Source of the DNA: an uncultured Verrucomicrobiales bacterium
GTDB taxonomy: Bacteria > Verrucomicrobiota > Verrucomicrobiia > Verrucomicrobiales > DEV007
Length of the DNA stretch: 64,000 bases
Direction of reading: 5' to 3'
Assembly (NCBI GenBank): GCA_964500945.1
Contig: CAZCRA010000002.1
Location: 27,683-91,682 of the forward strand
Position numbers and translations under genes: made by a program
The notes under the pieces: generated by a model
What the model saw: the letters and a program-made list of their open reading frames with translations, nothing else
The model's database searches: none
Told to the model about the DNA's origin: nothing
Part shown: positions 1,833-21,810 of the stretch, piece by piece
Layout of the letters: each line of letters opens with the position of its first letter
How positions within the stretch are numbered: the stretch's first letter is position 1

Positions 1833-2828
1833 CTAACGCAGACAAGCGATCAGCTTCGCATCGAGAAAACCCAGGATCTGATCGAGGGCATTGGCGTATT
1901 CGTTGCTCGGTAGGACGAGCAGGTCTCCGGCAGCCTCTTCGAGGATTTCGCGGGCCGAACCGACGGCGCGTTCGAGAGCACCTTCGTAGTCGGCGATGTT
2001 GGCAAGTGCCGAAAGGTCGAAAGGCTCCTTCTGAACGAGGAGGCGGCAGAGTTTCTCCCTCTGGCGGTCAGTGGCCTCATCCAGGAGGTTGAGGATGGGC
2101 AGGGTGAGCTTTCCCTTCTCGAGATCGGTGCGGAGCGTTTTGCCGACGGCATCTTCGTCCCCCACGAGGTCGAGGCAGTCGTCATAAATCTGGTAAGCGA
2201 TACCAAGCCGGCGCCCGTAAGAGGCCAGACTCTCCTGGACCCGCTCAGTTGCTCCATTGAGTCGCGTGCCCAGCCTACAAGCCGCTTCGAACAGGGCTGC
2301 GGTCTTCATTTCGATGATCCGGAAGTAGTCATCGCGACTCAATTGGAGATCGAAGCGCCTCTGAGTTTGGATGATTTCGCCGGTGCACACCCGGCTGGCC
2401 GAATGGGCGATTTGCCGCGCGACTTCGCGATCTTCGAATTCGGTGGACACCATCAGTGCATGAGCGAAGAGGCTATCTCCCAGCAAAACGCTGAGTCCAT
2501 TTCCCCACTTCGCGTTTGCCGTCAGGAGATCTCGCCGTCTCTCGGCTCCGTCGATGATGTCATCGTGAACGAGCGTGGCGATGTGGATCATCTCGAGAGC
2601 GGTCCCGAGGAGGACGTGTTCTTCCGAAACCGAACCGGTCGCGCCACCGGCGAGGGTGACCAGGGCAGGCCGGATCCTTTTTCCGCTGGTTCCGCAAACG
2701 TAGGAGACGTAGCCTTCGACCGCGGGGTCAAAGGCGCGAACCTGATCGGAGAGCGTGCGCTCGACCCTCTGGATTTCGTCTCGGACGAGATGGAATGGGA
2801 ATTGGCCTCGGGGGGCTTCTGTGGTCAT
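1833..2828 (-). CDS. Long-chain trans-polyprenyl diphosphate synthase (IspB-like)
   Basis: The first Asp-rich motif is IATLVHDDIIDGAERRR, with small residues at -4/-5. The second Asp-rich motif is AYQIYDDCLDLVGD. The start is trimmed to the ATG at 2828 (MTTEAPRG), because the upstream 50 codons are Arg-rich junk. Confidence 0.85.
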   Translation of the reverse strand: MTTEAPRGQFPFHLVRDEIQRVERTLSDQVRAFDPAVEGYVSYVCGTSGKRIRPALVTLAGGATGSVSEEHVLLGTALEMIHIATLVHDDIIDGAERRRDLLTANAKWGNGLSVLLGDSLFAHALMVSTEFEDREVARQIAHSASRVCTGEIIQTQRRFDLQLSRDDYFRIIEMKTAALFEAACRLGTRLNGATERVQESLASYGRRLGIAYQIYDDCLDLVGDEDAVGKTLRTDLEKGKLTLPILNLLDEATDRQREKLCRLLVQKEPFDLSALANIADYEGALERAVGSAREILEEAAGDLLVLPSNEYANALDQILGFLDAKLIACLR

Positions 2829-2920
2829 AGTGCGTAGGCGCTTGGAGAATGGTTTTCTACATCTGCATACGACCTGAACGGGCAGCAAGATGGAGAGTCC
2901 GAGCGCTTTTCGTGGGACGG

Positions 2921-4057
2921 CTATTCGGAATGACCGAAAGCGAACTGGGCGTAGGCGGACTCGGCGGTCCCGAACCATTTTGAAGAAGCGGTTTGGAATT
3001 TCCGCCAGTGCTCGAAGACTCGAGCGTACGCGGGTTCCTGGCTGGATAGCTCGGCGTGCAGGTCTTCGGACTCCTTGGCGGCAGCCTTCATGAGGTCCTG
3101 CGGGAACGGTTGTAGTCTCACGCCTTTCTCCACCAGTTCATGGAGGGCGACGGGATTTTTGACATCGTAATTGTGGAGCATGTCGGCGGCGGTCCGCTCG
3201 CAAGCGATCTCCAACGCGGCCTGGTATTCGGAGGGCAGCCGGTCCCAGGACCTGCGGTTCACGTAGATGCTCATGTTCGCCCCGGGCTCCCACCAACCGG
3301 GGTAATAATAGTTCTTTGCGACCTGCCAGAATCCCAGCTTCTGATCGTCGTAGGGGCCAACCCATTCGGTGGCGTCGATGGCGCCTCGTTCTAAAGCGGG
3401 GTAGATGTCGCCACCGGGCAGGACCTGAACATTCACGCCGAGGCGGTTCATGATTTTGCCGCCGAGACCGGGGATCCGCATTTTGAGACCTTTGAGATCC
3501 TCGAGCGACTCGATTTCGCGCCGGAACCAGCCTCCCATCTGGGTTCCCGTGTTACCTCCGAGCAACGTGCGGATGTTGAAATCGGCCATGAGTTCGTTCA
3601 TCAGCTCGAGGCCGCCGCCCCGGCAAAGCCAGGCGGTCTGCTGACGGGCCGTCAATCCGAAGGGAACGGCCGTTTCGAAGGCGAGGGCGGGATTCTTTCC
3701 GACGTAGTAATAGGCGGCGGTGTGCCCGATTTCGATGCTGCCCTGTTGGACCGCGTCGAAGACCTCGCCGCCCGGAATGAGTTCGCCGGCCGAATAGACC
3801 TCCAGCTGAAAACGACCACCGGTGAGACCGGAGAGTTTCTCAGAAAGATTCTCGGCCAGGCCAAAAATGGTATCCAGGGACCGGGGATAACTCGACGCGA
3901 GGGTCCAGCGGATTCGCTTGCCGGTTTGAACGGAGGGGCTGGCTCCGCCTGGGCTTTCACCCTCGTTTCGGCAGCCGGCGAGTCCGGTTCCCGCCGCCAC
4001 GGCTCCACCAAGACCCGCCATCACGTGGCGACGGTTCATGCGCTTTGTTTGGTCCAT
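2921..4057 (-). CDS. TRAP-transporter solute-binding protein (DctP family), probable lipoprotein. No DctQ/M permease genes are adjacent.
   Basis: The translation shows GKRIRWTLASSYPRSLD..., GSIEIGHTAAYYYVGKNPALAF..., GTQMGGWFRREI and YYYPGWWEPG. The N-terminus MNRRHVMAGLGGAVAAGTGLAGC looks like a lipobox. Start candidates are 4057 (MDQTKR) and 4039 (MNRRH). Confidence 0.75.
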   Translation of the reverse strand: MDQTKRMNRRHVMAGLGGAVAAGTGLAGCRNEGESPGGASPSVQTGKRIRWTLASSYPRSLDTIFGLAENLSEKLSGLTGGRFQLEVYSAGELIPGGEVFDAVQQGSIEIGHTAAYYYVGKNPALAFETAVPFGLTARQQTAWLCRGGGLELMNELMADFNIRTLLGGNTGTQMGGWFRREIESLEDLKGLKMRIPGLGGKIMNRLGVNVQVLPGGDIYPALERGAIDATEWVGPYDDQKLGFWQVAKNYYYPGWWEPGANMSIYVNRRSWDRLPSEYQAALEIACERTAADMLHNYDVKNPVALHELVEKGVRLQPFPQDLMKAAAKESEDLHAELSSQEPAYARVFEHWRKFQTASSKWFGTAESAYAQFAFGHSE

Positions 4058-11027: not shown

Positions 11028-11528
11028 ATGCGGAGAAAGCGGCGGTTTGGGCGTAGGATCCTCTGCGTGGAATTGGTCCGCTTCAAACATGCGCGCTTCA
11101 CGGCGCGATTTCCGAAAGACTACCGCTATTCGCGGTCTCACTACTGGTTGTGTCCGGACCCTGAGCAAAGCGGGTTTTGGCGTGTGGGATTCACGAAGTT
11201 TGCCACTCGGATGCTCGGCGAGTTGGTGGAAGCGGAGTTCGAAGTGGGGGAGGGGGATCCGGTCGAACCCGGGCAGCAAATCGGCTGGGTCGAGGGGTTC
11301 AAAGCGGCGAGCGACGTGTTTTGCACGATGAGCGGCCGCTTTGGAGGGATGAACCCGGTGCTGCGGGAGGATGCGTGCATCATTCGCGAGAGTCCGTATG
11401 TCGATGGATGGCTTTACCGGGTGGAAGGCGAACCGGAAGCGGAGAGCATGGACGTGGAAGGTTACCTGGCCCATCTCGAGGGTCTCATCCGGCAGATGGA
11501 GAAGGATCCGAAGTATGCCGACGATTGA
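11028..11528 (+). CDS. Glycine-cleavage H-protein-like lipoyl-carrier protein, orphan (no gcvT or gcvP nearby)
   Basis: The translation shows YRYSRSHYWL...GFTKFATRMLGELVEAEF...QIGWVEGFKAASDVFCTMSG...GWLYRVE. The lipoyl-lysine context E-x-x-K-A-A-S-D is retained, with the K codon at 11301-11303. The start is trimmed to the ATG at 11028. Confidence 0.75.
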   Translation: MRRKRRFGRRILCVELVRFKHARFTARFPKDYRYSRSHYWLCPDPEQSGFWRVGFTKFATRMLGELVEAEFEVGEGDPVEPGQQIGWVEGFKAASDVFCTMSGRFGGMNPVLREDACIIRESPYVDGWLYRVEGEPEAESMDVEGYLAHLEGLIRQMEKDPKYADD

Positions 11529-11609
11529 ACGGTCCGAACACATGGAAGAGAATGCGTTTGTGGGCCGTGGTTCGAGGCACGAGATTACCGACCGCAGTTT
11601 CACGACGTC

Positions 11610-12863
11610 ATGATGATCGAACTTTCCAGCCGGATGCTCCGGACGGTGGACCCAAAGCTTCTCTGGAATTTTCAGTGGAACTTTGGGGTCAAAGGCATCC
11701 GCTCGATCCAGCTTTTTAAGAAGCGGCTGCGCGAGGGGGTGTATTTCCCTCCGTTCCTCTACCTATCGATTCTCAACAGCTGTAATCTTCGGTGTCAGGG
11801 GTGCTGGGTGGACGTCGACCGTCCGCAGACGAAGATCGAGCTGGATGATCTGAACCGGATCGTGAACGACGCCCGGGAACACGGGAACAGCTTCTTCGGG
11901 ATCCTGGGGGGCGAACCGTTCATGCACCCGGAACTGTTCGATTTCCTGGCGCAGCATCCGGATTGCTTCTTCCAAGTTTTCACGAACGGTCAACTCATCA
12001 CTCCGAAGAAGGCGCGAACGCTTCGGAAGCTGGGCAATGCGACGCCGCTGATCAGCATCGAAGGCGATGAACTCGTCTCGAACGAGCGCCGGGGTGGAAA
12101 AGACGTTTACGAGCGCACTCTGCGGGGGCTGCGGAACGCTCTGGACGAGAAATTGCTGACGGGGGTGGCGACGAGCGTCTGCAAGACGAATCTCGATCTG
12201 CTGGTGAGCGAGCGGTGGCTCCGCCAGCTAGTCGATTTCGGCGCGCACTACGTGTGGTTTCACACTTACCGGCCCGTCGGTCCGCAAATCCACGAGGAAT
12301 TGGCACTCAGCCCGGAGGAAGCGCGGCGGGTCCGGCAGTTCGTGGTCGACATGCGCTGCAAGATGCCGATTGGGATCGTGGATGCCTACTACGACGGCGA
12401 GGGGCGCGCGGTCTGTCCGATGGCCACCGGAATCAGTCATCACATCGGGCCGACGGGTGGGGTGGAGCCGTGTCCGATCATCCAGTTCGCCACGGAGTCT
12501 GTTGGCGAGCGCTCCATTTACGAAACCCTCACGCAGAGCGGATTCATGAAGGATTTCCGCGAGACGGCGGCGCAACACACGCGGGGATGCATCGTGCTCG
12601 AGCGGCCGGATCTGGTGAAGGAGTTGGCGGAGAAACATGGGGCGCGCGACACGACACTGCGGCAGACGGCGATGGCGGAATTGGAAGGGATGACACCCAA
12701 AGGCAGCCAGTATCAGCCGGGCTGGGAGATCCCGGAGAAGCACTGGCTTTACCGCATTGCCAAGCATTTCTGGTTCAACGATTTCGGCGCTTACCAAAAC
12801 CAGAAGCCCGAGAAGCCGCGCATGCTGAAGCGGATCGCGCCCGTGACGGCGGTGCAGAACTGA
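11610..12863 (+). CDS. Radical SAM enzyme with a Cys-containing C-terminal extension; the layout resembles HpnH
   Basis: The CxxxCxxC motif is SILNSCNLRCQGCWV, with Cys codons at 11781, 11793 and 11802. GGEPF is present. A basic amphipathic leader precedes the cluster motif. The C-terminal segment is AVCPMATGISHHIGPTGGVEPCPIIQF. Confidence 0.85.
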   Translation: MMIELSSRMLRTVDPKLLWNFQWNFGVKGIRSIQLFKKRLREGVYFPPFLYLSILNSCNLRCQGCWVDVDRPQTKIELDDLNRIVNDAREHGNSFFGILGGEPFMHPELFDFLAQHPDCFFQVFTNGQLITPKKARTLRKLGNATPLISIEGDELVSNERRGGKDVYERTLRGLRNALDEKLLTGVATSVCKTNLDLLVSERWLRQLVDFGAHYVWFHTYRPVGPQIHEELALSPEEARRVRQFVVDMRCKMPIGIVDAYYDGEGRAVCPMATGISHHIGPTGGVEPCPIIQFATESVGERSIYETLTQSGFMKDFRETAAQHTRGCIVLERPDLVKELAEKHGARDTTLRQTAMAELEGMTPKGSQYQPGWEIPEKHWLYRIAKHFWFNDFGAYQNQKPEKPRMLKRIAPVTAVQN

Positions 12864-12904
12864 GGAGAGCCAGGGTCCGCGATTTGCGGTCATGGAAACG
12901 AACG

Positions 12905-13231
12905 ATGGCGGAAGAAAAGATCGTTTATTGCCGGTGCGCCTATGCGCAGGTGGTGCCTGAGGACGTCAAGGCCGAGGTGCTCCAGCGCCTGGCCGGGTCG
13001 GGCGTCAGTTTCGAGTGCGTTTCGGACCTGTGCGAGATGTCAGCGCGGCGGGACCCTCGTCTCGAAGCCATTTTTGGGGAGGGAGAAGTCCGGGTAGCGG
13101 CCTGCCATCCCCGAGCGGTTCGATGGCTGCTGCACGCCGCCGGGATCGACGCTCCGCCGGAGCGGGTGAAGGTCGCCAACATGCGGGAGGACGACGCCGA
13201 GCGCGTGGCGAATGAGACGCTGGGCGAGTGA
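12905..13231 (+). CDS. Small Cys-rich protein, tentatively MvhD/FlpD-like
   Basis: Only the last 108 codons of track ORF 12215..13231 are credible, because the upstream part overlaps the radical-SAM gene in another frame. The product is MAEEKIVYCRCAYAQVVPEDVKAEVL...FECVSDLCEM...VRVAACHPRAV. The pattern KIV-x-C-x-C ... ACHP resembles the hydrogenase delta-subunit-like fold as I remember it. Confidence 0.55.
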   Translation: MAEEKIVYCRCAYAQVVPEDVKAEVLQRLAGSGVSFECVSDLCEMSARRDPRLEAIFGEGEVRVAACHPRAVRWLLHAAGIDAPPERVKVANMREDDAERVANETLGE

Positions 13232-13265
13232 AAGCTCGGTCCATGAGAGGATTTATTAGCGAAAG

Positions 13266-14165
13266 ATGATCGATCAGGAAAACACACCATTTCAGGTCGT
13301 GCTCTACGAGGGGCGCGGGGCCGGTTTGATGGAAGCTTCGATGCGCTGGGGGCTGATGGGCCAGCTGTTGGATCAGGGCTATTGGGTCACCCGGGTGGCG
13401 CCAGACGGAGGCGGATTCGCTAAACCGGCGGGGCGATTGCTGGTGTTGGGGCAGTTTCCCGATGGCACGCCGGCCCTGGAGGATGCCGCAGGCGAGATCG
13501 AATTGGACGTTCGGGACATCAGTGGGCTGGATGAGGCGTTGATCCTGGCGCTCGTCGAAGAACGGCGGGGTGCCCACGCGATGAACCAGCCGGCGGGGGC
13601 GGCAGCGGTCGCGGGGACGAAATCGTGGAAGCCATGGTTCCCGGTGATCGACTACGATCGCTGCACGAACTGCATGCAGTGCCTGAGTTTCTGCCTGTTC
13701 GACGTGTATGGGGTCGATTCGGAACAGCGCATCCAGGTTCAGAACCAGGACAACTGCAAAACGAATTGCCCGGCCTGCTCACGGGTTTGTCCGGAGGTGG
13801 CGATCATGTTCCCAAAATACAAGGCCGGCCCCATCAACGGCGCGCCGGTCCGTCAGGAGGATCTGAACCGGGAAAAAATGAAGGTGGACATCTCCGCGCT
13901 ACTCGGTGGCGACATTTACTCGAACCTGCGGCAGCGAAGTGAAGCGGCGAAGTCGCGATTCGCGAAAGAGCGCAGCCCGGACAAGGCGTTGGACGAGCGG
14001 AAACGGTGTCTGACGAAGCTGCAGAGCGATGGCATCATCCCGACCGACGTGCTCGAGGAGATTGATCTGGCTTCGCTCCCAAGCATGGACGACATCCAAC
14101 GGAAGGCGAAAGAGGCGGCGGCGAAGGCTCAGGCGGCACTGGATGCGCAGAAGCCCTCGGAATGA
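13266..14165 (+). CDS. Ferredoxin-domain protein with two [4Fe-4S] motifs, an unknown N-domain and a charged C-terminal tail
   Basis: The first motif is CTNCMQCLSFC (CxxCxxCxxxC). The second is CKTNCPACSRVCP (Cx3CxxCxxxCP). Confidence 0.8.
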   Translation: MIDQENTPFQVVLYEGRGAGLMEASMRWGLMGQLLDQGYWVTRVAPDGGGFAKPAGRLLVLGQFPDGTPALEDAAGEIELDVRDISGLDEALILALVEERRGAHAMNQPAGAAAVAGTKSWKPWFPVIDYDRCTNCMQCLSFCLFDVYGVDSEQRIQVQNQDNCKTNCPACSRVCPEVAIMFPKYKAGPINGAPVRQEDLNREKMKVDISALLGGDIYSNLRQRSEAAKSRFAKERSPDKALDERKRCLTKLQSDGIIPTDVLEEIDLASLPSMDDIQRKAKEAAAKAQAALDAQKPSE

Positions 14166-14324
14166 GCGATTTTCATGTTCCTGCACCGTGCTCCACACGC
14201 CTTTTCCTTGAAGAAGGGCCGTTTTGAAAGACAACTGCGGGGTGATTCGGCTGTGTTTTACCCAGCTGAGCCCGTTTTTCGTCCAGGCGTGGGCGTCCAA
14301 CGGCAACGTTTACTCTAATTCATC

Positions 14325-16079
14325 ATGGCTTCCCCATCCAGCGAAATCCAGACCGTCAAGCTTCCTCAAAGCGTTCCGGTGACCACGACGCGGTTCCGGC
14401 CGCCCAAAAAGAACATTCCTCAGACGAAGGAAGAGCGAGACGCGTTGCTGGAGCGCGTGCGAGGGTATTTGGAGGAGGTTTCGGTGGTCCAGCCCATGCC
14501 GCTGGACGAGCTGGAGACCCACGCGCGGAAGATCCTGGAAGAAGCGGGGCTGGACCTGATTTACCTGCACTACACGGCAGTTTTGTTGAGCAACGAAGCG
14601 TGGCGCGAGGCGCTGGCGACCATTCCGTATGAACGGCGCCTGTTGCTGATGCCGAAGTGCCTGCGGGTGGAGGAAAAATGCCCGGCGCCATTCGACGAGT
14701 TCGGGTTGCTCTGCAAGCAGTGCGGGCTCTGCACGATTCAAGATTTCCAAAACGAAGCGGAGCGCTTGGGCTATGCGGTCCTTGTGGCGGAGGGATCGGC
14801 GATCGTGATGTCGCTGATTCAGACCGGGAAGATCGAGGCGATCGTAGGTGTCAGCTGCCTGCCCGTGCTGGAGCGGACCTTTCCCTACGTCGAAGCGGCG
14901 GCCATCCCGGCCATTGCGGTGCCTTTGCTGCAGGACGACTGCATCAACACGACGGTCGATAACGACTGGGTCTGGGATTACATCCACCTCACGAGCGAGG
15001 ACAAGACCCGGCGGTTGAATCTGAATCAGCTTCACGACGAGGTGCGGAGTTGGTTCGAACCCGAGACCGTCGAGGGGTTGATGGGCGAACCGGATGGGCA
15101 CGCGGAGCGGGTGGCGCGCGACTGGCTGCTGAAGGACGGGAAACGCTGGCGTCCGTTTTTGACCGTGGCGACTTACCAGGCACTGCGAGACGAGCCCGAG
15201 GCGCCGGTGCCAGACGGGGTCCGAAAGCTGGCTCTGGCGGTCGAGTGTTTCCACAAGGCATCGCTGATTCACGACGATATCGAGGATGAGGACCGGGAAC
15301 GCTACGGCGAGGCGACGCTGCACGAAGCCGAGGGGCTGCCGGTGGCGCTGAACGCTGGGGATCTCTTGATCGGCGAGGGCTACCGGCTCATCGCGGAAAG
15401 CGGCGTGCCGGCGGAAGCGATCGCGACGATGGTCCGTGCCGCGTCCGATGGGCAGCGGGAACTGTGCCGGGGTCAGGGAGCGGAGCTGGCCTGGGCACGC
15501 GATCCGTCGCCGCTGAAAACCACGCAGGTGCTGGAGATCTTCCGGTTAAAAACGGCGCCGGCCTTCAACGTGGCGCTGCAACTGGGTGCGGCAGCAGCCG
15601 GCAGAGCCGCCGAGGTGGACGGCACGCTGGCCAAGTTCAGCGAAGCGCTGGGCATCGCCTACCAGATCCGTGATGACATGGACGATTTGTCCCAGGATTC
15701 CGGCGACAACGAACAGCGGGCCTTCCGGCCGAGCGTGATGTTGGCTAAGGGGCGCGAGATGGCGAAGGGTGACGCGAAGAAGCTATTGGAACGGCTCTGG
15801 CGGAGGGAGATGGAGGACGCGGATTACGACGAGGTTCGGCGAATCGTTCACCAGGCTGGGGCGGATGAGAAGTGCATGCTGATGCTGGAGACCTACAAGG
15901 AAACGGCGATTCGCAGTTTAGCGGATTTGGAAAACGCGAATCTGAAAGGCCTGCTGCGCCGGGTGATCGGGAAGATCTTCAACGATCTCGAGATCAAGGG
16001 CTGGTGCCGGGAGTTCGAGGTGCGCAACGGGGTCCGGGAAGAGTCCGAAGCGAAATCGCAACCGGCCGCCGTGGCCTGA
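14325..16079 (+). CDS. Fusion protein with an N-terminal DUF116-like Cys-rich domain and a C-terminal polyprenyl diphosphate synthase
   Basis: The N-terminal half reads RRLLLMPKCLRVEEKCPAPFDEFGLLCKQCGLCTIQDF...IVGVSCLPVLE. The C-terminal half reads GKRWRPFL, FARM FHKASLIHDDIEDED (15273-15287) and SARM AYQIRDDMDDL (15672-15686). Confidence 0.8.
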   Translation: MASPSSEIQTVKLPQSVPVTTTRFRPPKKNIPQTKEERDALLERVRGYLEEVSVVQPMPLDELETHARKILEEAGLDLIYLHYTAVLLSNEAWREALATIPYERRLLLMPKCLRVEEKCPAPFDEFGLLCKQCGLCTIQDFQNEAERLGYAVLVAEGSAIVMSLIQTGKIEAIVGVSCLPVLERTFPYVEAAAIPAIAVPLLQDDCINTTVDNDWVWDYIHLTSEDKTRRLNLNQLHDEVRSWFEPETVEGLMGEPDGHAERVARDWLLKDGKRWRPFLTVATYQALRDEPEAPVPDGVRKLALAVECFHKASLIHDDIEDEDRERYGEATLHEAEGLPVALNAGDLLIGEGYRLIAESGVPAEAIATMVRAASDGQRELCRGQGAELAWARDPSPLKTTQVLEIFRLKTAPAFNVALQLGAAAAGRAAEVDGTLAKFSEALGIAYQIRDDMDDLSQDSGDNEQRAFRPSVMLAKGREMAKGDAKKLLERLWRREMEDADYDEVRRIVHQAGADEKCMLMLETYKETAIRSLADLENANLKGLLRRVIGKIFNDLEIKGWCREFEVRNGVREESEAKSQPAAVA

Positions 16080-16095
16080 GGAGGCGGTCCATCCG

Positions 16096-16980
16096 ATGTC
16101 GCTGCGGCTGGAAATGCTCCAGGTGGCGCGCCTGGCGCCGCGGGTGCTCGATGAAGCGGCGGATCTCGTGTGCGAATTCGTGCGCGGACAGGAGCGGGAC
16201 GATGGCGGGTATCCGGACCGCGATGGCAAGAGCGATCTCTACTACACGAGTTTCGCCGTCGATGCGTTGACGGCGCTGCAGGATCCGCTGCCGGAGCGTC
16301 GTCTGGCGGGGTTTTTGAGGGGTTTCGGCGACGGTGACGGGCTGGATTTCGTCCATTTATGCTGTCTGATCCGGCTGTGGTCGGTGCTGCGCGAGGAGAG
16401 ACCGGAACCGGCGCAGCTGGAGCGGATGTTCAAGCACCTGGAACGGTTCCGGAGCGACGATGGGGGGTTCGAGGTGGATGCGGAGGCGGATGAGGGTTCG
16501 GCCTACGGCTGCCTCCTGGCCTACGGGGCCCACGCGGATCACGGGCGGGAGGTGGAACGGCTGGAGGCACTGGCGGACTGTCTGGACCGGTTGCGGGCCG
16601 AAGGCGGGGGATGGGCGAACGACTCGATGATTCCGATCGGTTCCGTTCCGGCCACGGCGGCGGCGGTGACCGTGAGCCGGAACCTGCGGCATCCTGTTCC
16701 GGAGGGAACGGGCGACTGGCTCATGGCGCAGTTCCATCCGCAGGGCGGGTTTGTGGCGGTGCCGGGTGCGCCGATGCCGGATTTGCTCTCGACGGCGGTG
16801 GCGCTGCATGCGCTGGACGGGTTGCAGGCGGATTTCGAGGTGCTCAAGGAGCCCTGCCTGGATTTCATCGACAGCCTATGGACGAACGCCGGCGGGTTTC
16901 ACGGGAATTGGAGCGATGACGAACTGGATTTGGAGTACACCTACTACGGCTTGTTGGCGCTGGGGCACCTGGCGCTGTAG
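16096..16980 (+). CDS. Small prenyltransferase/squalene-oxidase-repeat (alpha/alpha-toroid) protein
   Basis: The 294-aa product carries repeated motifs: ERDDGGYPDRDGKSDLYYTSFAVDAL, RSDDGGFE, RAEGGGWAND, HPQGGFVAVPGAPMPDLLSTAVALHAL and NAGGFHGNWSDDELDLEYTYYGLLAL. I see no obvious Zn-ligand Cys/His at the positions used by protein prenyltransferase beta subunits. Confidence 0.7.
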   Translation: MSLRLEMLQVARLAPRVLDEAADLVCEFVRGQERDDGGYPDRDGKSDLYYTSFAVDALTALQDPLPERRLAGFLRGFGDGDGLDFVHLCCLIRLWSVLREERPEPAQLERMFKHLERFRSDDGGFEVDAEADEGSAYGCLLAYGAHADHGREVERLEALADCLDRLRAEGGGWANDSMIPIGSVPATAAAVTVSRNLRHPVPEGTGDWLMAQFHPQGGFVAVPGAPMPDLLSTAVALHALDGLQADFEVLKEPCLDFIDSLWTNAGGFHGNWSDDELDLEYTYYGLLALGHLAL

Positions 16981-18783
16981 GTGAGGTTTGGTCCGCGCGA
17001 GGGTATCGCAACAGGTGAAGGGATGGATTTCGAGAGCGTGAGGTTGAAGGCGCGGGAACGGCTGCTGGCGGAGCGGACGGCCGGCGGCTGGTGGACCGGA
17101 GAATTGTCCAGCAGTGCGCTCTCGACCGCGACGTCGATCGTGGCGTTGACCTTGGTGGAGGCGCACCGGGAGCGGATCAGGCGGGGGGTGACGTGGCTGG
17201 CTGGGCAGCAAAATCCGGATGGCGGCTGGGGCGACACGGACCGGAGTTTTTCGAATTTGTCGACGACGCTCCTGAGTTGGTCGGCGCTGAAGTTGGCGAG
17301 GCATCCGGACCGGGCTGCGTTGGAGCGGGCGGAGAGGTGGATTGGTGAGCGGGCAGGAGATTTGGATCCGGAGACGCTGGTCAGGAAGGTAACGGAGAGG
17401 TATGGGCGCGACCGGACGTTCGCGGTGCCGATCCTCATGATGTGCGCAATCTGCGGGACCCTGGGCGAACCGGATGCCGCTTGGCGCCGGGTGCTACCGT
17501 TGCCGTTCGAATTGGCGGCCTTTCCGAGGGAGTGGTTCGCGGCTTTGCGGCTGCCGGTGGTGAGCTACGCGCTTCCGGCCTTGATCGCGATCGGCTATGC
17601 GCGGCACCATCACGCGCCTGCGCCGGTGCCGTTGAGATGGGTCCGGTCGATGATTTGGCCACGGGTATCTGGGCTGCTCGAGCGAATCCAGCCCGGGAGC
17701 GGTGGTTTTCTGGAGGCCGCGCCGTTGACGGGCTTCGTGACGATGGCGTTGGCCTCAGCGGGCGAGAAGGATCATCCGGTGGCCCGCCGGGGTGTGGGGT
17801 TTCTGGTCGAGGGACAGCGGGAGGATGGGAGTTGGCCGATCGACACGAATCTTTCGACGTGGGTGACGACGCTGGCGGTGAAGGCGCTCTGGCGGGAGGA
17901 ACCCTGTACCGTGGAGGAGAGCGACGGGGTGTTGAGTTGGCTTCGGGCACAGCAGTATGTTCGGGTCCATCCCTTCACCAACGCCGCCCCGGGAGGCTGG
18001 GCCTGGACAAACCTGAGCGGCGGGGTGCCGGACGCCGATGATACCCCCGGAGCTCTTTTGGCCCTGCGTCTGCTCGATCCCGGGGCGCGAGAGGCGGCGG
18101 AAGCCGGGATTGGTTGGTTATTGGACCTGCAGAATTCGAACGGTGGAATTCCAACCTTTTGCCGGGGATGGGGCGCCCTACCCTTCGACCGGTCGAGCGC
18201 GGATCTGACGGCACACGCGCTGCGGGCGTGGGCAGTGTGGCGCGAGGAGGTGGCTGACGAACTCCGGGAGCGGATCGATCGAGCAGCGGCGCGCGCCATG
18301 GCCTTTCTGGCACGGCAGCAGCGGAGTGATGGCTCCTGGGTGCCGCTTTGGTTTGGCAATCAACACGTGACGGACGAAGAAAATCCGGTCTACGGGACGG
18401 CGAAGGTCGTGCTGGCGTTGAACGAAGTGCGCGACTGGTTGCCGGAGGGCGAGGTGTTGCGGAAGGGTGGCGTGGCTTGGCTGGAGACCGCGCAACGGGG
18501 AGACGGGAGTTTTGGCGGCGACGGAAGCGACAGCGGACCGGGGTCGATCGAAGAAACGGCGCTGGCGACGGAAGCCTTGATTCGCGCCGGGCGACTCGAC
18601 GCCGGGGGGCGGGGTTTGGAAGCGCTCGGCAAACTGACGGAGGGAGGAACGGCGTTTTCGGCGTCTCCAATTGGATTCTACTTTGCGAAACTGTGGTACT
18701 ACGAGCGGTTGTATCCGCTAATTTGGACCGTGAGCGCCTTTGAAGCGGGGAAGGCGGACGGGCTGGATTCTAGATTCACGTGA
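16981..18783 (+). CDS. Squalene-hopene-cyclase-like class II terpene cyclase
   Basis: QW-type repeats are present (QQNPDGGWG, QREDGSWP, QNSNGGIP, QQRSDGSWVPLWFGN, QRGDGSFGG). The catalytic-type motif is PGGWAWTNLSGGVPDADDTPGALLAL, with DADD at 18031-18042. The C-terminus is GFYFAKLWYYERLYPLIWTVSAF. A GTG at 16981 directly follows the upstream stop, and an alternative ATG lies at 17023. Confidence 0.8.
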   Translation: MRFGPREGIATGEGMDFESVRLKARERLLAERTAGGWWTGELSSSALSTATSIVALTLVEAHRERIRRGVTWLAGQQNPDGGWGDTDRSFSNLSTTLLSWSALKLARHPDRAALERAERWIGERAGDLDPETLVRKVTERYGRDRTFAVPILMMCAICGTLGEPDAAWRRVLPLPFELAAFPREWFAALRLPVVSYALPALIAIGYARHHHAPAPVPLRWVRSMIWPRVSGLLERIQPGSGGFLEAAPLTGFVTMALASAGEKDHPVARRGVGFLVEGQREDGSWPIDTNLSTWVTTLAVKALWREEPCTVEESDGVLSWLRAQQYVRVHPFTNAAPGGWAWTNLSGGVPDADDTPGALLALRLLDPGAREAAEAGIGWLLDLQNSNGGIPTFCRGWGALPFDRSSADLTAHALRAWAVWREEVADELRERIDRAAARAMAFLARQQRSDGSWVPLWFGNQHVTDEENPVYGTAKVVLALNEVRDWLPEGEVLRKGGVAWLETAQRGDGSFGGDGSDSGPGSIEETALATEALIRAGRLDAGGRGLEALGKLTEGGTAFSASPIGFYFAKLWYYERLYPLIWTVSAFEAGKADGLDSRFT

Positions 18784-19876
18784 GAATCTGGCGGATTTGG
18801 CTTTCTCGGGCTTCGATGCTTTCGCAGAGCTTCATTTGAACGCGGGCGCGGTGGAGGTTTTGGAGTTCGTGCCGGACTTTAAAATAGCGGTTTCCCGCCA
18901 GGTAATCGGTGTAGAACCGGAGCCCGAGTTCAAACGCGATCAGGCGAACGGCGTCGTAGAGGAAGCGATGGTCTGTCGGTGAAAGAAAACCGGAAGCCTC
19001 GCGGAGATAGCCCCGCATGAGGGCATCGAAAAGATCGAGATCGAAATAAACCTCGTCGAGGTCCTGGGTTTCCTCGCCGGCCGGGTTGCAGGCGCTCCGT
19101 GCGGCATCGCCGACGTCGTAGTGGATGAGCCCTGGTTTGACCGTATCAAGATCGATGATGGCCGTCCCTCGGCCGGTGACGTCATCGATCATGATGTTGG
19201 TGATCTTCGGGTCTCCGTGAATGGGCCGGATGGAGAGTTCACGGGAGGCCGCGGCATTTTCCAGGACGGGAACGAAGGACCGGCGATCCTCGATGAAGCG
19301 GGCGATCCGCTGCGATTCGGCCGAGGCCGTGAGGAGTCGCTCCCCCCCGGGGGTGGCGCGGATTTCGTCGAACGCCCGCAAGTAATCCGGCGTCACGTGG
19401 AAGCCTGGCAGGGTGTCGGCGAGATTTGCGACGGGAAAATCGGCGATGAGGTGATGAAAATGTCCCAGGACCCTGCCGGCTTCGAAGGCGTGTTCGGGGG
19501 AGTGCACCCGGTCGTGGCTTTTGGCCGAAGCGATCAGGGACAGCCCCCGCCAGTAGCTGCCATCGGGAGCTTCGAAGAGATCCCGGCCGTCGCGAGCGGG
19601 AATGATCCGTGGGAGCTGCCAGATCCGATCGGCTTCATCGGCGGCCGCTTCGATCCGGCGATGGGCATGCTCCGTGACGGCACGCATGTTCGCCATCACG
19701 GTTTCGGGCGATTTGAAGACGGCGTGATTGATGCGTTGGAGGACGAAGCGGTGTTCATCGAAGGTGGTGCGAAAGACGGCACAGAAGGTGTCGTTCACGT
19801 TCCCCGACCCGAGCGGTTCGACGGTCACCAGACGGCCGGGGACGTCGAAGGCCTTTGCGGCATCGGCTGGATTCAT
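18776..19876 (-). CDS. APH-fold sugar kinase, N-acetylhexosamine-1-kinase (NahK)-like
   Basis: The translation shows VEPLGSGNVNDTF, FVLQRINHAVFKSPETVMANMRAVTEH, IHGDPKITNIMIDD and IIDLDTV. The start is trimmed to the ATG at 19876, which overlaps the nadE stop (ATGA). The 3' end overlaps the cyclase gene by 8 nt (convergent). Confidence 0.7.
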   Translation of the reverse strand: MNPADAAKAFDVPGRLVTVEPLGSGNVNDTFCAVFRTTFDEHRFVLQRINHAVFKSPETVMANMRAVTEHAHRRIEAAADEADRIWQLPRIIPARDGRDLFEAPDGSYWRGLSLIASAKSHDRVHSPEHAFEAGRVLGHFHHLIADFPVANLADTLPGFHVTPDYLRAFDEIRATPGGERLLTASAESQRIARFIEDRRSFVPVLENAAASRELSIRPIHGDPKITNIMIDDVTGRGTAIIDLDTVKPGLIHYDVGDAARSACNPAGEETQDLDEVYFDLDLFDALMRGYLREASGFLSPTDHRFLYDAVRLIAFELGLRFYTDYLAGNRYFKVRHELQNLHRARVQMKLCESIEARESQIRQILT

Positions 19877-21810
19877 GCGTCGTCCAGTTCGTTCAGCTCC
19901 TGCTCGAAACCGCCGGAAAGGATCGGGAAGCGGCACCAGGTTTTCGGATCGAGGTTTTCGTCGTCCAGGTGGAACGAGGGGGCAAACCTCTCGCGCTTCC
20001 ACTGGTTCCTCGACCAGAGGCGGAAGAAACGGCGGACCCACTCGACCCGTTGCGGTCGCGGTTCGTCCGGAAAATCGACGGCGAGGCGCTCAACGATGGT
20101 GGCGGGAGACGATTTGTCACGGATCGCCGCGCGTTCGATGGCATCGAGGACGGGGAAAGGCATCAGATCGGCCTCATCGGTTTGCGCCTCGGATTCGGGT
20201 CGGAGCTCGGCGGTGGGTTGCTGAGCGTTGATGAGGGTGAGTTCGGGAATGGGACGGATGCGATCGCTTCCCTCGGTTTCGAGCCAGCGCAGCCAATGAC
20301 GGAGGAAGGCTTTGTCGATGCCGCAAATCGGGCTGAGACCGCCGCTGGTATCGCCGTCCATGGTGGTGTAACCCACGGCGGCTTCGGAGCGATTCGAGGT
20401 GGCGAGTAGAAGGGCGCCGCGGAGGTTTGCCAGCATCCAAATGCCGGGTGAGCGGACGCGCGCCTGGATGTTTTGGAGGGCCAAATCGTCCCGTTCCCAG
20501 CTCAACTCCCGGTCGAGCGCCGAGGAGGCGAGGCCGGTGTATTTTTCGATGAGACCGGAGATCTCCCATCGGTGAAACGATGCACCGAGGGATTTCGCGA
20601 GCGTCCGGGCGGCGGTCTCCGTAGTTTCCGAACTGTTCTCCGAAGCCTGGTAAACGCAGGTGAGAAGCTGGGCCATGCCGGGTTCAGGGAGCTTCAACCA
20701 GTCGCCCAGCCGGCGCACGACCTCGACGTCGCCCAGTTCCGCGCGGCTCAGATCGAGCATGATTCGGACCAAACACGCGATAGCACCGGAGTCAGCTCCG
20801 CCGCTGAGGGAAAGGACGAACCCCCGGCTATGGCTTTTGCGGAGGTAATCGAACAGAGCCAAAGCCACGGCGTGGGCGAATTCCTCTTCTTTGGAAAGGG
20901 TGGGGTAGGTGGTGCTGGGGTCGATCGAAACGGCTGGCTCGTCTTTCCAGGGGAAATCGATCGCGACATCGGCACCGTCGTCCGGGGCGACGGCGCGCCC
21001 GACGGTCCGGGCCTGCTCGCTGCGCAGGCGATCGAGAGGGATCGCTGCGTGAATGAGATGGTGTTCCCGAAAGCTGAGTCGAGGATGAGCCGCCAGAAGA
21101 CGGCCACCACAGGCGATGAGAGTGCCGCCATCGTAAATCGCGCGTCCGGCCTCGTTCCCGAGGAGGTTGGCGTAGAGGTAGACCGAACCGTAGGCGCGGG
21201 AGTGTTCGAGGACGTAGCGATGCCGGATGGCGTCTTTTCCAAAGGCAAAATGGCTGGCACTGGGATGGAGGATGACGTCCGCGCCGCGGGCGGCGAGCCG
21301 GGAACCGGGTGTCGACGCCACCCAGGCATCCTCACAGATTTCGATGCCGAACCGGACGCCGCCGATTTCGTAGAGGAGATCGCCGACCGGTACACCGTTC
21401 CAGGTGGTGACGACGCCGGGGGGCCAGGGTTTGAACCAGCGCGGCTCGTAGTGGAGGCCATCGCCGGCGAGATGTTGTTTGGGGGTGATGCCCAGGATGC
21501 GGCCATTCGCGATGAGGGCGATGGCGTTGTAGACCGCGCCACGAAGCCACAGCGGGATACCGAGCGTGAGGATCAGGTTCTCCGATTCGGTGGCCAGTTC
21601 CTCGACGGCCTGCCATGCGCGGTCGGCGAGATGCGGAGCGAGGAAAACGTCTTCGCACCCATATCCGGGGACGTTCATCTCCGGGAGGCAGAGAACCTGA
21701 GCCCTGGCCTCCCGGGCGGATGCCATGGCGGCGCGGATCCGGGTGAGATTACCCGGCCAGTCGAGCGGCGTCTGGTTCAGGGCCGCCGCGGCGACGGTGA
21801 TGGCATCCAT
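19873..21810 (-). CDS. nadE: Glutamine-dependent NAD+ synthetase (CN-hydrolase domain plus PP-loop synthetase)
   Basis: The nitrilase-type domain shows LCLPEMNVPGYGCED and FGIEICEDAW. The PP-loop is VLSLSGGADSGA. Confidence 0.9.
   Translation of the reverse strand: MDAITVAAAALNQTPLDWPGNLTRIRAAMASAREARAQVLCLPEMNVPGYGCEDVFLAPHLADRAWQAVEELATESENLILTLGIPLWLRGAVYNAIALIANGRILGITPKQHLAGDGLHYEPRWFKPWPPGVVTTWNGVPVGDLLYEIGGVRFGIEICEDAWVASTPGSRLAARGADVILHPSASHFAFGKDAIRHRYVLEHSRAYGSVYLYANLLGNEAGRAIYDGGTLIACGGRLLAAHPRLSFREHHLIHAAIPLDRLRSEQARTVGRAVAPDDGADVAIDFPWKDEPAVSIDPSTTYPTLSKEEEFAHAVALALFDYLRKSHSRGFVLSLSGGADSGAIACLVRIMLDLSRAELGDVEVVRRLGDWLKLPEPGMAQLLTCVYQASENSSETTETAARTLAKSLGASFHRWEISGLIEKYTGLASSALDRELSWERDDLALQNIQARVRSPGIWMLANLRGALLLATSNRSEAAVGYTTMDGDTSGGLSPICGIDKAFLRHWLRWLETEGSDRIRPIPELTLINAQQPTAELRPESEAQTDEADLMPFPVLDAIERAAIRDKSSPATIVERLAVDFPDEPRPQRVEWVRRFFRLWSRNQWKRERFAPSFHLDDENLDPKTWCRFPILSGGFEQELNELDDA

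Follow-up and report, generated by a model that had tools for sequence, protein, structure and literature searches.

Recurrent terpenoid gene clusters of Verrucomicrobia and Planctomycetes carry a predicted twitch-type radical-SAM enzyme and a GcvH-like protein

We describe a gene cluster in a 64,000-nucleotide (nt) stretch of contig CAZCRA010000002.1, from an uncultured Verrucomicrobiales bacterium; we call this whole stretch the window. The feature under study (11028-14165) comprises four genes, encoding a GcvH-like lipoyl-domain protein, a radical S-adenosylmethionine (radical-SAM) enzyme, a small cysteine-rich protein, and a ferredoxin-domain (Fer4) protein. These genes open an operon-like array of seven (11028-18783), of which they make up the upstream half, and this seven-gene terpenoid cluster recurs across Verrucomicrobia and Planctomycetes. 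It appears to be an undescribed, widespread variant of radical-SAM-assisted terpenoid biosynthesis with an unusual H-protein component, and full-text searches of the literature for combinations of its parts found no description of it. Quite possibly, and this is the reading that we tentatively prefer, the array encodes a terpenoid pathway of the Planctomycetes-Verrucomicrobia-Chlamydiae (PVC) lineage in which a new twitch-type radical-SAM enzyme, served by a dedicated electron chain, tailors an isoprenoid made by the adjacent enzymes. The four open reading frames (ORFs) are all on the + strand, with intergenic gaps of 81, 41, and 34 nt. A first-pass annotation, made from the letters of this DNA, had placed them correctly, and every motif that it quoted is present in the window.

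The radical-SAM enzyme is central to this reading. It matches Pfam Radical_SAM with 56.3 bits (cut-off 29.5) and carries CNLRCQGC (C58/C62/C65) and AVCPMATGISHHIGPTGGVEPCPII. In an alignment of 14 diverse family members (A1), the CX3CX2C motif formed by these three cysteines, GGEP, and TNG (SAM-binding) are conserved, in orthologues down to ~35% identity. Judged by its motifs, the protein has all that is expected of an active SAM-cleaving enzyme. Three further cysteines, C269, C288, and C327, are invariant in A1. The element C269-X13-G283-X4-C288 has precisely the CX9-15GX4C form found in SPASM/twitch domains; the first-pass annotation had likened this segment to a C-x(n)-PC segment of the hopanoid adenosyl-transferase HpnH, a comparison that we have to give up. 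The seven-cysteine SPASM block (CX2CX5CX3C) is absent from the protein, in which C327 is the sole further invariant cysteine, and Pfam SPASM gives no match. The pattern reads as a twitch-like site with three cysteines, where a single auxiliary [4Fe-4S] cluster is probably bound, one iron of which would be open or ligated by something other than cysteine. MoaA has a similar three-cysteine auxiliary site, which suggests an open iron here too.

Family searches and the predicted fold place the enzyme in the same class. No NCBIfam model reaches its cut-off, and the best ones are the SPASM/twitch families ScmF, NirJ2, AhbD, and BlsE; the sequence matches in the PDB are BlsE, SkfB, and SuiB. Pfam offers no family for residues 230-417, even with the threshold relaxed to E <= 10. 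The AlphaFold (AF2) model, predicted with the database homologues of A1 as input, has a predicted local distance difference test (pLDDT) score of 86.8 and a predicted template modeling (pTM) score of 0.87. Its best Foldseek matches in the PDB are SuiB, SkfB, BlsE, CteB, and anSME (query-normalized TM-score, TMq, 0.47-0.58; E 3e-15 to 1e-11), and the list, which spans TMq 0.42-0.58 overall, also includes viperin, PqqE, and MoaA. Both the motif and the fold agree with the SPASM/twitch class, one of those proposed for comparison in the first-pass annotation. The enzyme shares CX9-15GX4C, GGEP, and TNG with SuiB, SkfB, BlsE, CteB, anSME, and MoaA, but differs from the known members in its moderate similarity (TM 0.47-0.58, identity 15-19%), in reaching no curated family cut-off, in lacking the second SPASM cysteine block, and in a genomic context that is terpenoid rather than peptide, sugar, or nucleotide. 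We conclude from motifs and model that it represents a new, undescribed family within the SPASM/twitch class, one that is without curated model, name, or literature.

This family is large. We found 7351 proteins at E <= 0.001, and the best 120 of them are 69-100% identical to the enzyme of the window; where a source is named among these 120, it is Verrucomicrobiota, Verrucomicrobiales, or Akkermansiaceae. A library clustered at 50% identity contains 274 clusters of the family at E <= 1e-30, with full-length orthologues down to ~35% identity. One full-length member (P0123; 44% identity, row 7 of A1) has GGSLARQSTGV in place of CNLRCQGCWV. All three cysteines of CX3CX2C are gone and the C-terminal ones are retained, so that this protein may be a pseudo-radical-SAM paralogue.

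Two other identities had been proposed for the enzyme, and it belongs to neither family. With the HpnH model (TIGR03470 / IPR017833) the enzyme scores 34.7 bits, where 225.05 would be needed, and the match is confined to the generic core (residues 35-192 of the enzyme, profile positions 15-173). The C-terminal domain specific to HpnH, which we take to be DUF3463, was not found, residues 230-417 being without any Pfam match. An affiliation with LipS, LipA, or BioB was also rejected: the top NCBIfam matches are all SPASM/twitch families, BioB ranks 48 in the Foldseek list (TMq 0.42), and LipA lies outside the top 50. LipS1 and LipS2 resemble biotin synthase and carry that annotation (PMC9585515), and their separation from the enzyme of the window rests on family class and fold ranking, LipS having been compared by annotation and without direct alignment. 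The second reading of the first-pass annotation, a LipS-like or heterodisulfide-reductase (Hdr)-type lipoate module, is not borne out by the twitch-class enzyme or by its surroundings: lipoate ligase, octanoyltransferase, and sHdr/Hdr genes are absent from the window and from the annotated orthologous loci.

The radical-SAM enzyme seems to have its own iron-sulfur (Fe-S) partners. The small protein contains KIVYCRC...AACHP, and four cysteines are invariant among 30 sequences, in a CxC...C...C pattern. It has 1197 homologues, all unnamed, and gives no Pfam match at E <= 10 and no NCBIfam match. Its AF2 model (pLDDT 92.7) has a flavodoxin-like/Rossmann 2x2 alpha/beta fold, and in the PDB Foldseek finds nothing better than E = 7.5e-3, its best matches being Rossmann or flavodoxin-like folds of a generic kind. 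The label MvhD/FlpD (PF02662), given to this protein at first, finds neither a Pfam match nor a significant fold match and was dropped; a relationship to DUF116 was rejected as well (hhalign E = 0.63). We presume that the protein is a metal or Fe-S redox partner of the radical-SAM enzyme. The Fer4 protein contains CTNCMQCLSFC and CKTNCPACSRVCP, two [4Fe-4S] motifs (at residues ~133-143 and ~164-176) within a central 2x[4Fe-4S] domain (~125-180). Several Pfam Fer4 families match it, and the score exceeds the cut-off for Fer4_2 alone (27.9 versus 24.5). Both CxxCxxCxxxC(P)-type motifs, recognized already in the first-pass annotation, are invariant in 22 orthologues, in which the core and the charged C-terminal tail are also strongly conserved.

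The decisive evidence that these proteins are partners comes from a natural gene fusion. P0124 is a single chain of 675 aa with the order small Cys domain, Fer4 domain, radical-SAM enzyme, and on its contig (L089) separate genes for DUF116 and a polyprenyl synthase come next. The small and the Fer4 proteins, which co-occur with the radical-SAM enzyme and are fused to it in P0124, are its obligate partners. The N-terminal domain of the Fer4 protein is poorly conserved and has no conserved cysteine. In the window, this cysteine-less domain (13266-13600) sits where P0124 has the small 4-Cys domain, and it gives a weak collinear hhalign match to the small protein (E = 0.024, probability 2%). This N-terminal domain is perhaps a duplicate that has degenerated.

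The link between these genes and terpenoid biosynthesis comes from their neighborhood. We studied 80 loci anchored on the radical-SAM gene, with one genome per GTDB species, mostly of Verrucomicrobiota with some Planctomycetota, and detected the neighbors by tblastn with the proteins of the window. We considered a locus assessable if it had 5 kb or more of flanking sequence on either side, which left 46 loci (Table 1). The cluster genes are all on the same strand, except the one for the NifS-like desulfurase, and two orders of them are conserved. Most often, a complete cluster reads desulfurase (opposite strand), GcvH-like, GTPase, small protein, Fer4, radical-SAM, DUF116-polyprenyl synthase (DUF116-PPS), toroid, and squalene-hopene cyclase (SHC)-like; an annotated metagenome-assembled genome (MAG) of Akkermansiaceae (L086) has the complete nine-gene version. 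The window has the second order, with the radical-SAM gene before its partners, and has lost the GTPase between the GcvH-like and radical-SAM genes. Neither the CobW-type GTPase nor the NifS-type desulfurase was found anywhere in the window, where the sole GTPase match is Obg. The GTPase is of the cobW family (CobW/COG0523 type), with a GGCFCC motif and no equivalog match, and the desulfurase is NifS/DndA-like.

Table 1. Genes of the array in the window, the gene that follows it, and two genes of related clusters, with their occurrence near the radical-SAM gene at assessable loci.
Gene product	Position	Strand	Description	Loci near radical-SAM gene
GcvH-like lipoyl-domain protein	11028..11528	+	166 aa; Pfam GCV_H	18/46
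Radical-SAM enzyme	11610..12863	+	417 aa; Pfam Radical_SAM	
Small Cys protein	12905..13231	+	108 aa; ATG at 12905; four invariant Cys	23/46
Ferredoxin-domain (Fer4) protein	13266..14165	+	299 aa; 2x[4Fe-4S] motifs, Pfam Fer4 models	24/46
DUF116 + polyprenyl_synt fusion (DUF116-PPS)	14325..16079	+	Pfam DUF116 E = 3.6e-34, polyprenyl_synt E = 2.6e-39	17/46, conserved order
alpha/alpha-toroid protein, PFTB-type repeats	16096..16980	+	Pfam Prenyltrans E = 1.7e-10	15/46
SHC-like class II terpene cyclase	16981..18783	+	Pfam SQHop_cyclase_C + SQHop_cyclase_N	11/46
APH-family kinase	18776-20041	-	Convergent; end of array	
CobW-type GTPase				17/46
NifS-type cysteine desulfurase				10/46

The same gene order in dozens of distantly related genomes is more than chance. 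Distant orthologues of the radical-SAM enzyme (39-47% identity; L089 and L090) still adjoin DUF116, which is therefore the most persistent neighbor after the Fe-S partners. At these two loci DUF116 and the prenyl synthase are separate genes, yet both lie beside the radical-SAM gene; the GTPase and the desulfurase are absent and GcvH is not kept nearby. The connection of the four genes with downstream terpene genes, as drawn in the first-pass annotation, thus holds at 17 of the 46 loci through DUF116-PPS, and across distant orthologues. Ten cluster-bearing MAG records (L055, L062, L066, L027, L050, L059, L060, L065, L080, and L083) are titled Klebsiella, Bifidobacterium, Akkermansia muciniphila, Haliangiales, Limnocylindria, Armatimonadota, etc. 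Since these titles are probably binning or labeling errors, they are no safe evidence that the cluster extends beyond the PVC group.

The downstream genes encode the terpene enzymes that had been recognized in the first-pass annotation, with Pfam matches for polyprenyl_synt, Prenyltrans, and SQHop_cyclase. The DUF116 domain of the fusion is Cys-rich and contains CxxCxxC. Makarova et al. predicted DUF116 (COG1852/arCOG02078) to be Cys-rich and flavodoxin-like and to serve in electron transfer, and they noted a polyprenyl synthase fused to it in Pirellula staleyi Psta_0175 (PMC5898192). The window has the same Pfam domain in the same type of fusion, but that study does not report a link of DUF116 with a radical-SAM enzyme, Fe-S partners, cyclases, or a GcvH-like protein. 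A terpenoid cluster of Bipolaricaulota in the literature has DUF116 with IspH, SHC, HpnH, and a prenyl synthase. Both DDxxD motifs of the synthase domain are conserved in orthologues of the fusion. A second, stand-alone polyprenyl diphosphate synthase with both DDxxD motifs (381 aa) is encoded in the window at 1833-2978 (-), and the DUF116-fused synthase is hence an extra, dedicated copy. DUF116-PPS is usually succeeded by the genes for a toroid protein and a DxDD class II cyclase. The toroid protein has weak best matches in the PDB, to farnesyltransferase beta subunits (E = 0.06), and it is kept at a locus (L069) where the SHC-like gene does not adjoin. The cyclase best matches the SHC of A. 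acidocaldarius in the PDB (E = 1.5e-20), and its GGVPDADDT motif (DxDD; DxDDT) is invariant in 14 orthologues. With the DxDDT motif and both DDxxD motifs kept, the downstream enzymes look active. The cyclase scores 105 bits against 431 for the cut-off of the hopene-cyclase equivalog, far below it, and its product therefore need not be diploptene.

The GcvH-like protein is the most unusual component of the cluster. An alternative GTG start at 11067 would give a protein of ~153 aa, a length typical of its orthologues. It matches Pfam GCV_H with 64.8 bits (cut-off 22.2) and the equivalog TIGR00527 with 66.4 bits, under the cut-off of 115.85. The family has 2015 database matches, the best 120 of which are 59-76% identical; the listed matches with a source label are from Verrucomicrobiota. 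The motif EGFKAASD, the lipoylation context noted in the first-pass annotation, contains the candidate modified lysine, which is invariant in all 141 aligned GcvH-like sequences. Presumably, the protein carries a lipoyl-type arm on this residue. A tblastn search of the whole window with a verrucomicrobial GcvT gave no match (best E = 0.23), gcvP having had no separate search, and the annotated orthologous loci contain neither GCV_T nor GDC-P. At one locus (L078), a canonical GcvH (L078:19332-19691) is encoded ~12 kb from the GcvH-like paralogue (L078:7118-7492); they are 60% and 29% identical, respectively, to an E. coli GcvH reference sequence. Since both are on L078, canonical GcvH and the GcvH-like paralogue coexist in one genome. 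These observations support the view that the GcvH-like protein is a paralogue distinct from the housekeeping GcvH and acts outside glycine cleavage, in agreement with the first-pass annotation, which had thought that role unlikely.

A second set of 80 loci, from a metagenome sample and anchored on the GcvH-like gene, links this protein to terpenoids in another way. An HpnD-like presqualene diphosphate synthase gene abuts the GcvH-like gene upstream at 16 of 65 assessable loci, and the GTPase and/or radical-SAM genes lie downstream at 19 of 55. The HpnD-like protein scores 246.9 bits (cut-off 278.6), and no gene for it was found in the window. This arrangement, at L084:6072-11645 and 15 other loci from the metagenomes, often has the order lepA, signal peptidase I (lepB), HpnD-like, GcvH-like, in some cases followed by the cobW-type GTPase. 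In the lepA-lepB arrangement the stop and start of the HpnD-like and GcvH-like genes overlap, and no HpnC or HpnE was seen alongside. The radical-SAM cluster and the HpnD-like adjacency are thus two independent arrangements that tie the GcvH-like protein to terpenoid genes. It most likely forms, with the CobW-type GTPase and the NifS-type desulfurase, an accessory redox, sulfur, or cluster-assembly module of the same pathway, and it is probably not a substrate of the radical-SAM enzyme.

How could such a pathway work? We infer the following steps, including the class of the substrate, the path of the electrons, and the open iron of the auxiliary cluster. The prenyl synthase would make a short-chain prenyl diphosphate, and the HpnD-like enzyme of related genomes suggests a squalene route. 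The cyclase and the toroid protein would cyclize the prenyl product. The radical-SAM enzyme could be reduced through a private chain, from the small 4-Cys protein to the 2x[4Fe-4S] protein and possibly involving DUF116 too. It would then make a 5'-deoxyadenosyl radical, which would functionalize the isoprenoid through abstraction of a C-H hydrogen or through addition to an olefin. The presumed open iron of its auxiliary cluster may bind the substrate or handle a second electron.

Several observations weigh against this assignment to terpenoid tailoring. The functional link rests wholly on gene neighborhood. The nearest folds of the radical-SAM enzyme act on peptides, nucleotides, and sugars, not on lipids, and the lipid-modifying GDGT-MAS comes at rank 36 (TMq 0.42). 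A hydrophobic-moment scan of the terminal helices gave no strong signal of membrane association. No HpnG-like nucleosidase, side-chain, or other bacteriohopanepolyol genes are found among the conserved neighbors. A desulfurase, an H-protein homologue, and a metallochaperone-type GTPase together would suit cofactor maturation equally well. At 21 of the 46 loci the radical-SAM gene is alone, without any partner nearby, and at another 4 it has both Fe-S partners and no terpene genes. The first-pass annotation had proposed that its terpenoid reading would fail if the four genes were widespread without terpene genes. This is in part what we see, in the lone genes and in the few loci with only the two partners.

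The loci with a lone radical-SAM gene have no conserved neighbor in common. Their enzymes are as similar to that of the window as the clustered ones are, and they therefore look like scattered orthologues, not a separate paralogue; the pattern suggests lineage-specific scattering rather than independence. One of them, in a MAG of Limisphaerales (L057), has a gene for a GcvT-type aminomethyltransferase directly upstream of the radical-SAM gene (L057:8459-9583). Downstream (L057:11713-20518) are a MerR/B12 (CarH-like) regulator, a sigma factor, and a C30-carotenoid-like set consisting of two amine-oxidase desaturases, an aldehyde dehydrogenase, an acyltransferase, and a glycosyltransferase. We rejected a link between GcvT and the lone radical-SAM genes, as this is a single case and finds no support in the 33 other such loci.

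Lipid-modifying radical-SAM enzymes are the obvious group with which to compare a tailoring enzyme of this kind. A review of 2026 covers Tes, Mss, Gms, GrsA/B, Gmm, Cds, HpnH/J/P/R, Jaw5, and the ladderane candidates, and it contains no enzyme with the architecture or the partners of the one studied here (PMC13459092). The presumed isoprenoid lipid substrate and the auxiliary clusters are features in common with Tes/GDGT-MAS, GrsA/B, Mss, HpnJ, HpnP/R, and Jaw5, but none of these is close to the enzyme of the window. If the terpenoid assignment is right, experiments on the cluster could lead to a new terpenoid or biomarker lipid, to a new radical-SAM chemistry on isoprenoids, and possibly to a role of lipoyl-carrier proteins outside their canonical one. 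Little is known of the terpenoid lipids of Verrucomicrobia and Planctomycetes, although both groups abound in soils, lakes, oceans, and guts. The analysis also gives a functional context to three families so far listed as hypothetical or as domains of unknown function: the small 4-Cys protein, the Fer4 protein, and DUF116.

A bolder variant of the terpenoid reading gives the carrier protein a direct part in the chemistry. The lipoyl-type carrier and the CobW-type GTPase might supply reducing equivalents, hydrogen atoms, or sulfur to the radical-SAM enzyme acting on a substrate derived from squalene or another prenyl compound. The carrier could even be joined covalently to the terpenoid through a radical C-S bond. 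We regard this as conceivable and rather doubtful. If true, it would be the first link of H-protein and lipoyl-arm biochemistry to terpenoid biosynthesis, and would reveal a new class of terpenoid or of terpenoid-protein conjugate.

The rival explanations are less probable still. The radical-SAM enzyme, the GTPase, the desulfurase, the GcvH-like protein, and the ferredoxins could form a machine for cofactor maturation, which would build or insert a metal or Fe-S center, with the DUF116 domain as the likely client. Its model would be HydE/HydG/HydF with lipoyl-H-protein in the maturation of [FeFe]-hydrogenase, a known case in which an H-protein acts together with radical-SAM enzymes and a GTPase (PMC12752695, PMC11736057), and in which sulfur or Fe-S supply is likewise involved. 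The parts list fits, down to the GGCFCC motif of the CobW/COG0523-type GTPase and a NifS-like desulfurase adjacent at 10 of the 46 loci, and the radical-SAM-DUF116 pair is the most persistent one in distant lineages. However, that very pair is kept in the window and at L089 and L090 where the GTPase and the desulfurase are missing. Without GcvT there is no aminomethyl donor, and the desulfurase and the GTPase could merely service the ~6 ordinary Fe-S clusters that the array encodes. The analogy concerns only the parts list, since there is no hydrogenase here and no homology to HydE/G/F, and the GTPase is of the CobW/COG0523 type. We consider cofactor maturation unlikely.

Another possibility is that a non-homologue performs the chemistry of HpnH: a 5'-deoxyadenosyl radical would add to an olefin of the cyclized terpenoid to give an adenosyl-terpenoid, and the Fe-S partners or a dihydrolipoyl arm of the GcvH-like protein would provide an electron or a hydrogen atom to quench the product radical. 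HpnH requires a hydrogen-atom donor after radical addition (PMC13459092), and a reaction that is net reductive would explain the dedicated electron chain. In both systems the radical-SAM gene lies beside an SHC-type gene and a prenyl synthase gene, and a helical, basic N-terminal leader precedes CX3CX2C; in the window, the region before the cysteine motif aligns with the start of the HpnH model, and a terpenoid olefin is a plausible substrate there too. The score of the enzyme lies far below the HpnH cut-off, and its C-terminal half is unrelated to that of HpnH, with no Pfam match and with the twitch-type CX13GX4C and one further cysteine. It has two dedicated Fe-S partners. No HpnG/I/J/K genes are near it. 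An SHC-like gene adjoins in the window and at 11 of the 46 loci, and no HpnG-like gene is among the conserved neighbors; the cyclase itself is far under the hopene-cyclase cut-off. From the first reading of the first-pass annotation, an HpnH-like radical addition to a terpenoid with a dedicated reductant chain, we thus retain the terpenoid outline and not the homology to HpnH, and adenosylation appears to us quite unlikely.

It is very unlikely that the GcvH-like protein has no more than a housekeeping function, as a lipoyl relay or in redox, and lies beside the cluster by chance, the four genes not forming a functional unit. GcvH is a lipoyl relay in some bacteria, 13 of 22 well-flanked GcvH-like metagenome loci are without any tested partner, and the neighbors of this gene are highly variable. 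Against this stands its recurrent and independent adjacency to the HpnD-like gene (16/65), to the GTPase and/or radical-SAM genes (19/55), and to the radical-SAM gene in the set anchored on the latter (18/46), which holds among GcvH-like sequences that are merely 40-50% identical.

Least probable of all is an enzyme like LipS or LipA that modifies a group on the lysine of the GcvH-like protein, by sulfur insertion or a thioether, with the terpene genes as unrelated neighbors. As in the LipS1/LipS2 and LipA systems with GcvH or LbpA carriers, a radical-SAM gene lies beside that of an H-protein homologue with an invariant lipoyl-type lysine (81 nt upstream in the window) and a cysteine desulfurase is often near; the closest folds moreover include SkfB and CteB, thioether-forming enzymes in which an open auxiliary-cluster site binds a thiol. 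But the enzyme is of the twitch class, LipA and BioB are not among its closest radical-SAM matches, and LipS1/LipS2 are biotin-synthase-like. Most full clusters place the GTPase, and often both Fe-S partners, between the GcvH-like and radical-SAM genes; the GcvH-like gene often occurs without the latter, beside the HpnD-like gene; distant radical-SAM orthologues retain DUF116 and not GcvH, which is not the most constant neighbor; and the neighborhood has no lipoate ligase, octanoyltransferase, or Hdr genes.

Inside the array, a consensus scan for promoter and terminator signals gave numbers at or below the shuffled expectation. Upstream of the GcvH-like gene there are a divergent aminopeptidase gene and gatC/gatA. 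At the other end, the SHC-like gene and the gene of the APH-family kinase share 8 bp at their 3' ends (18776-18783).

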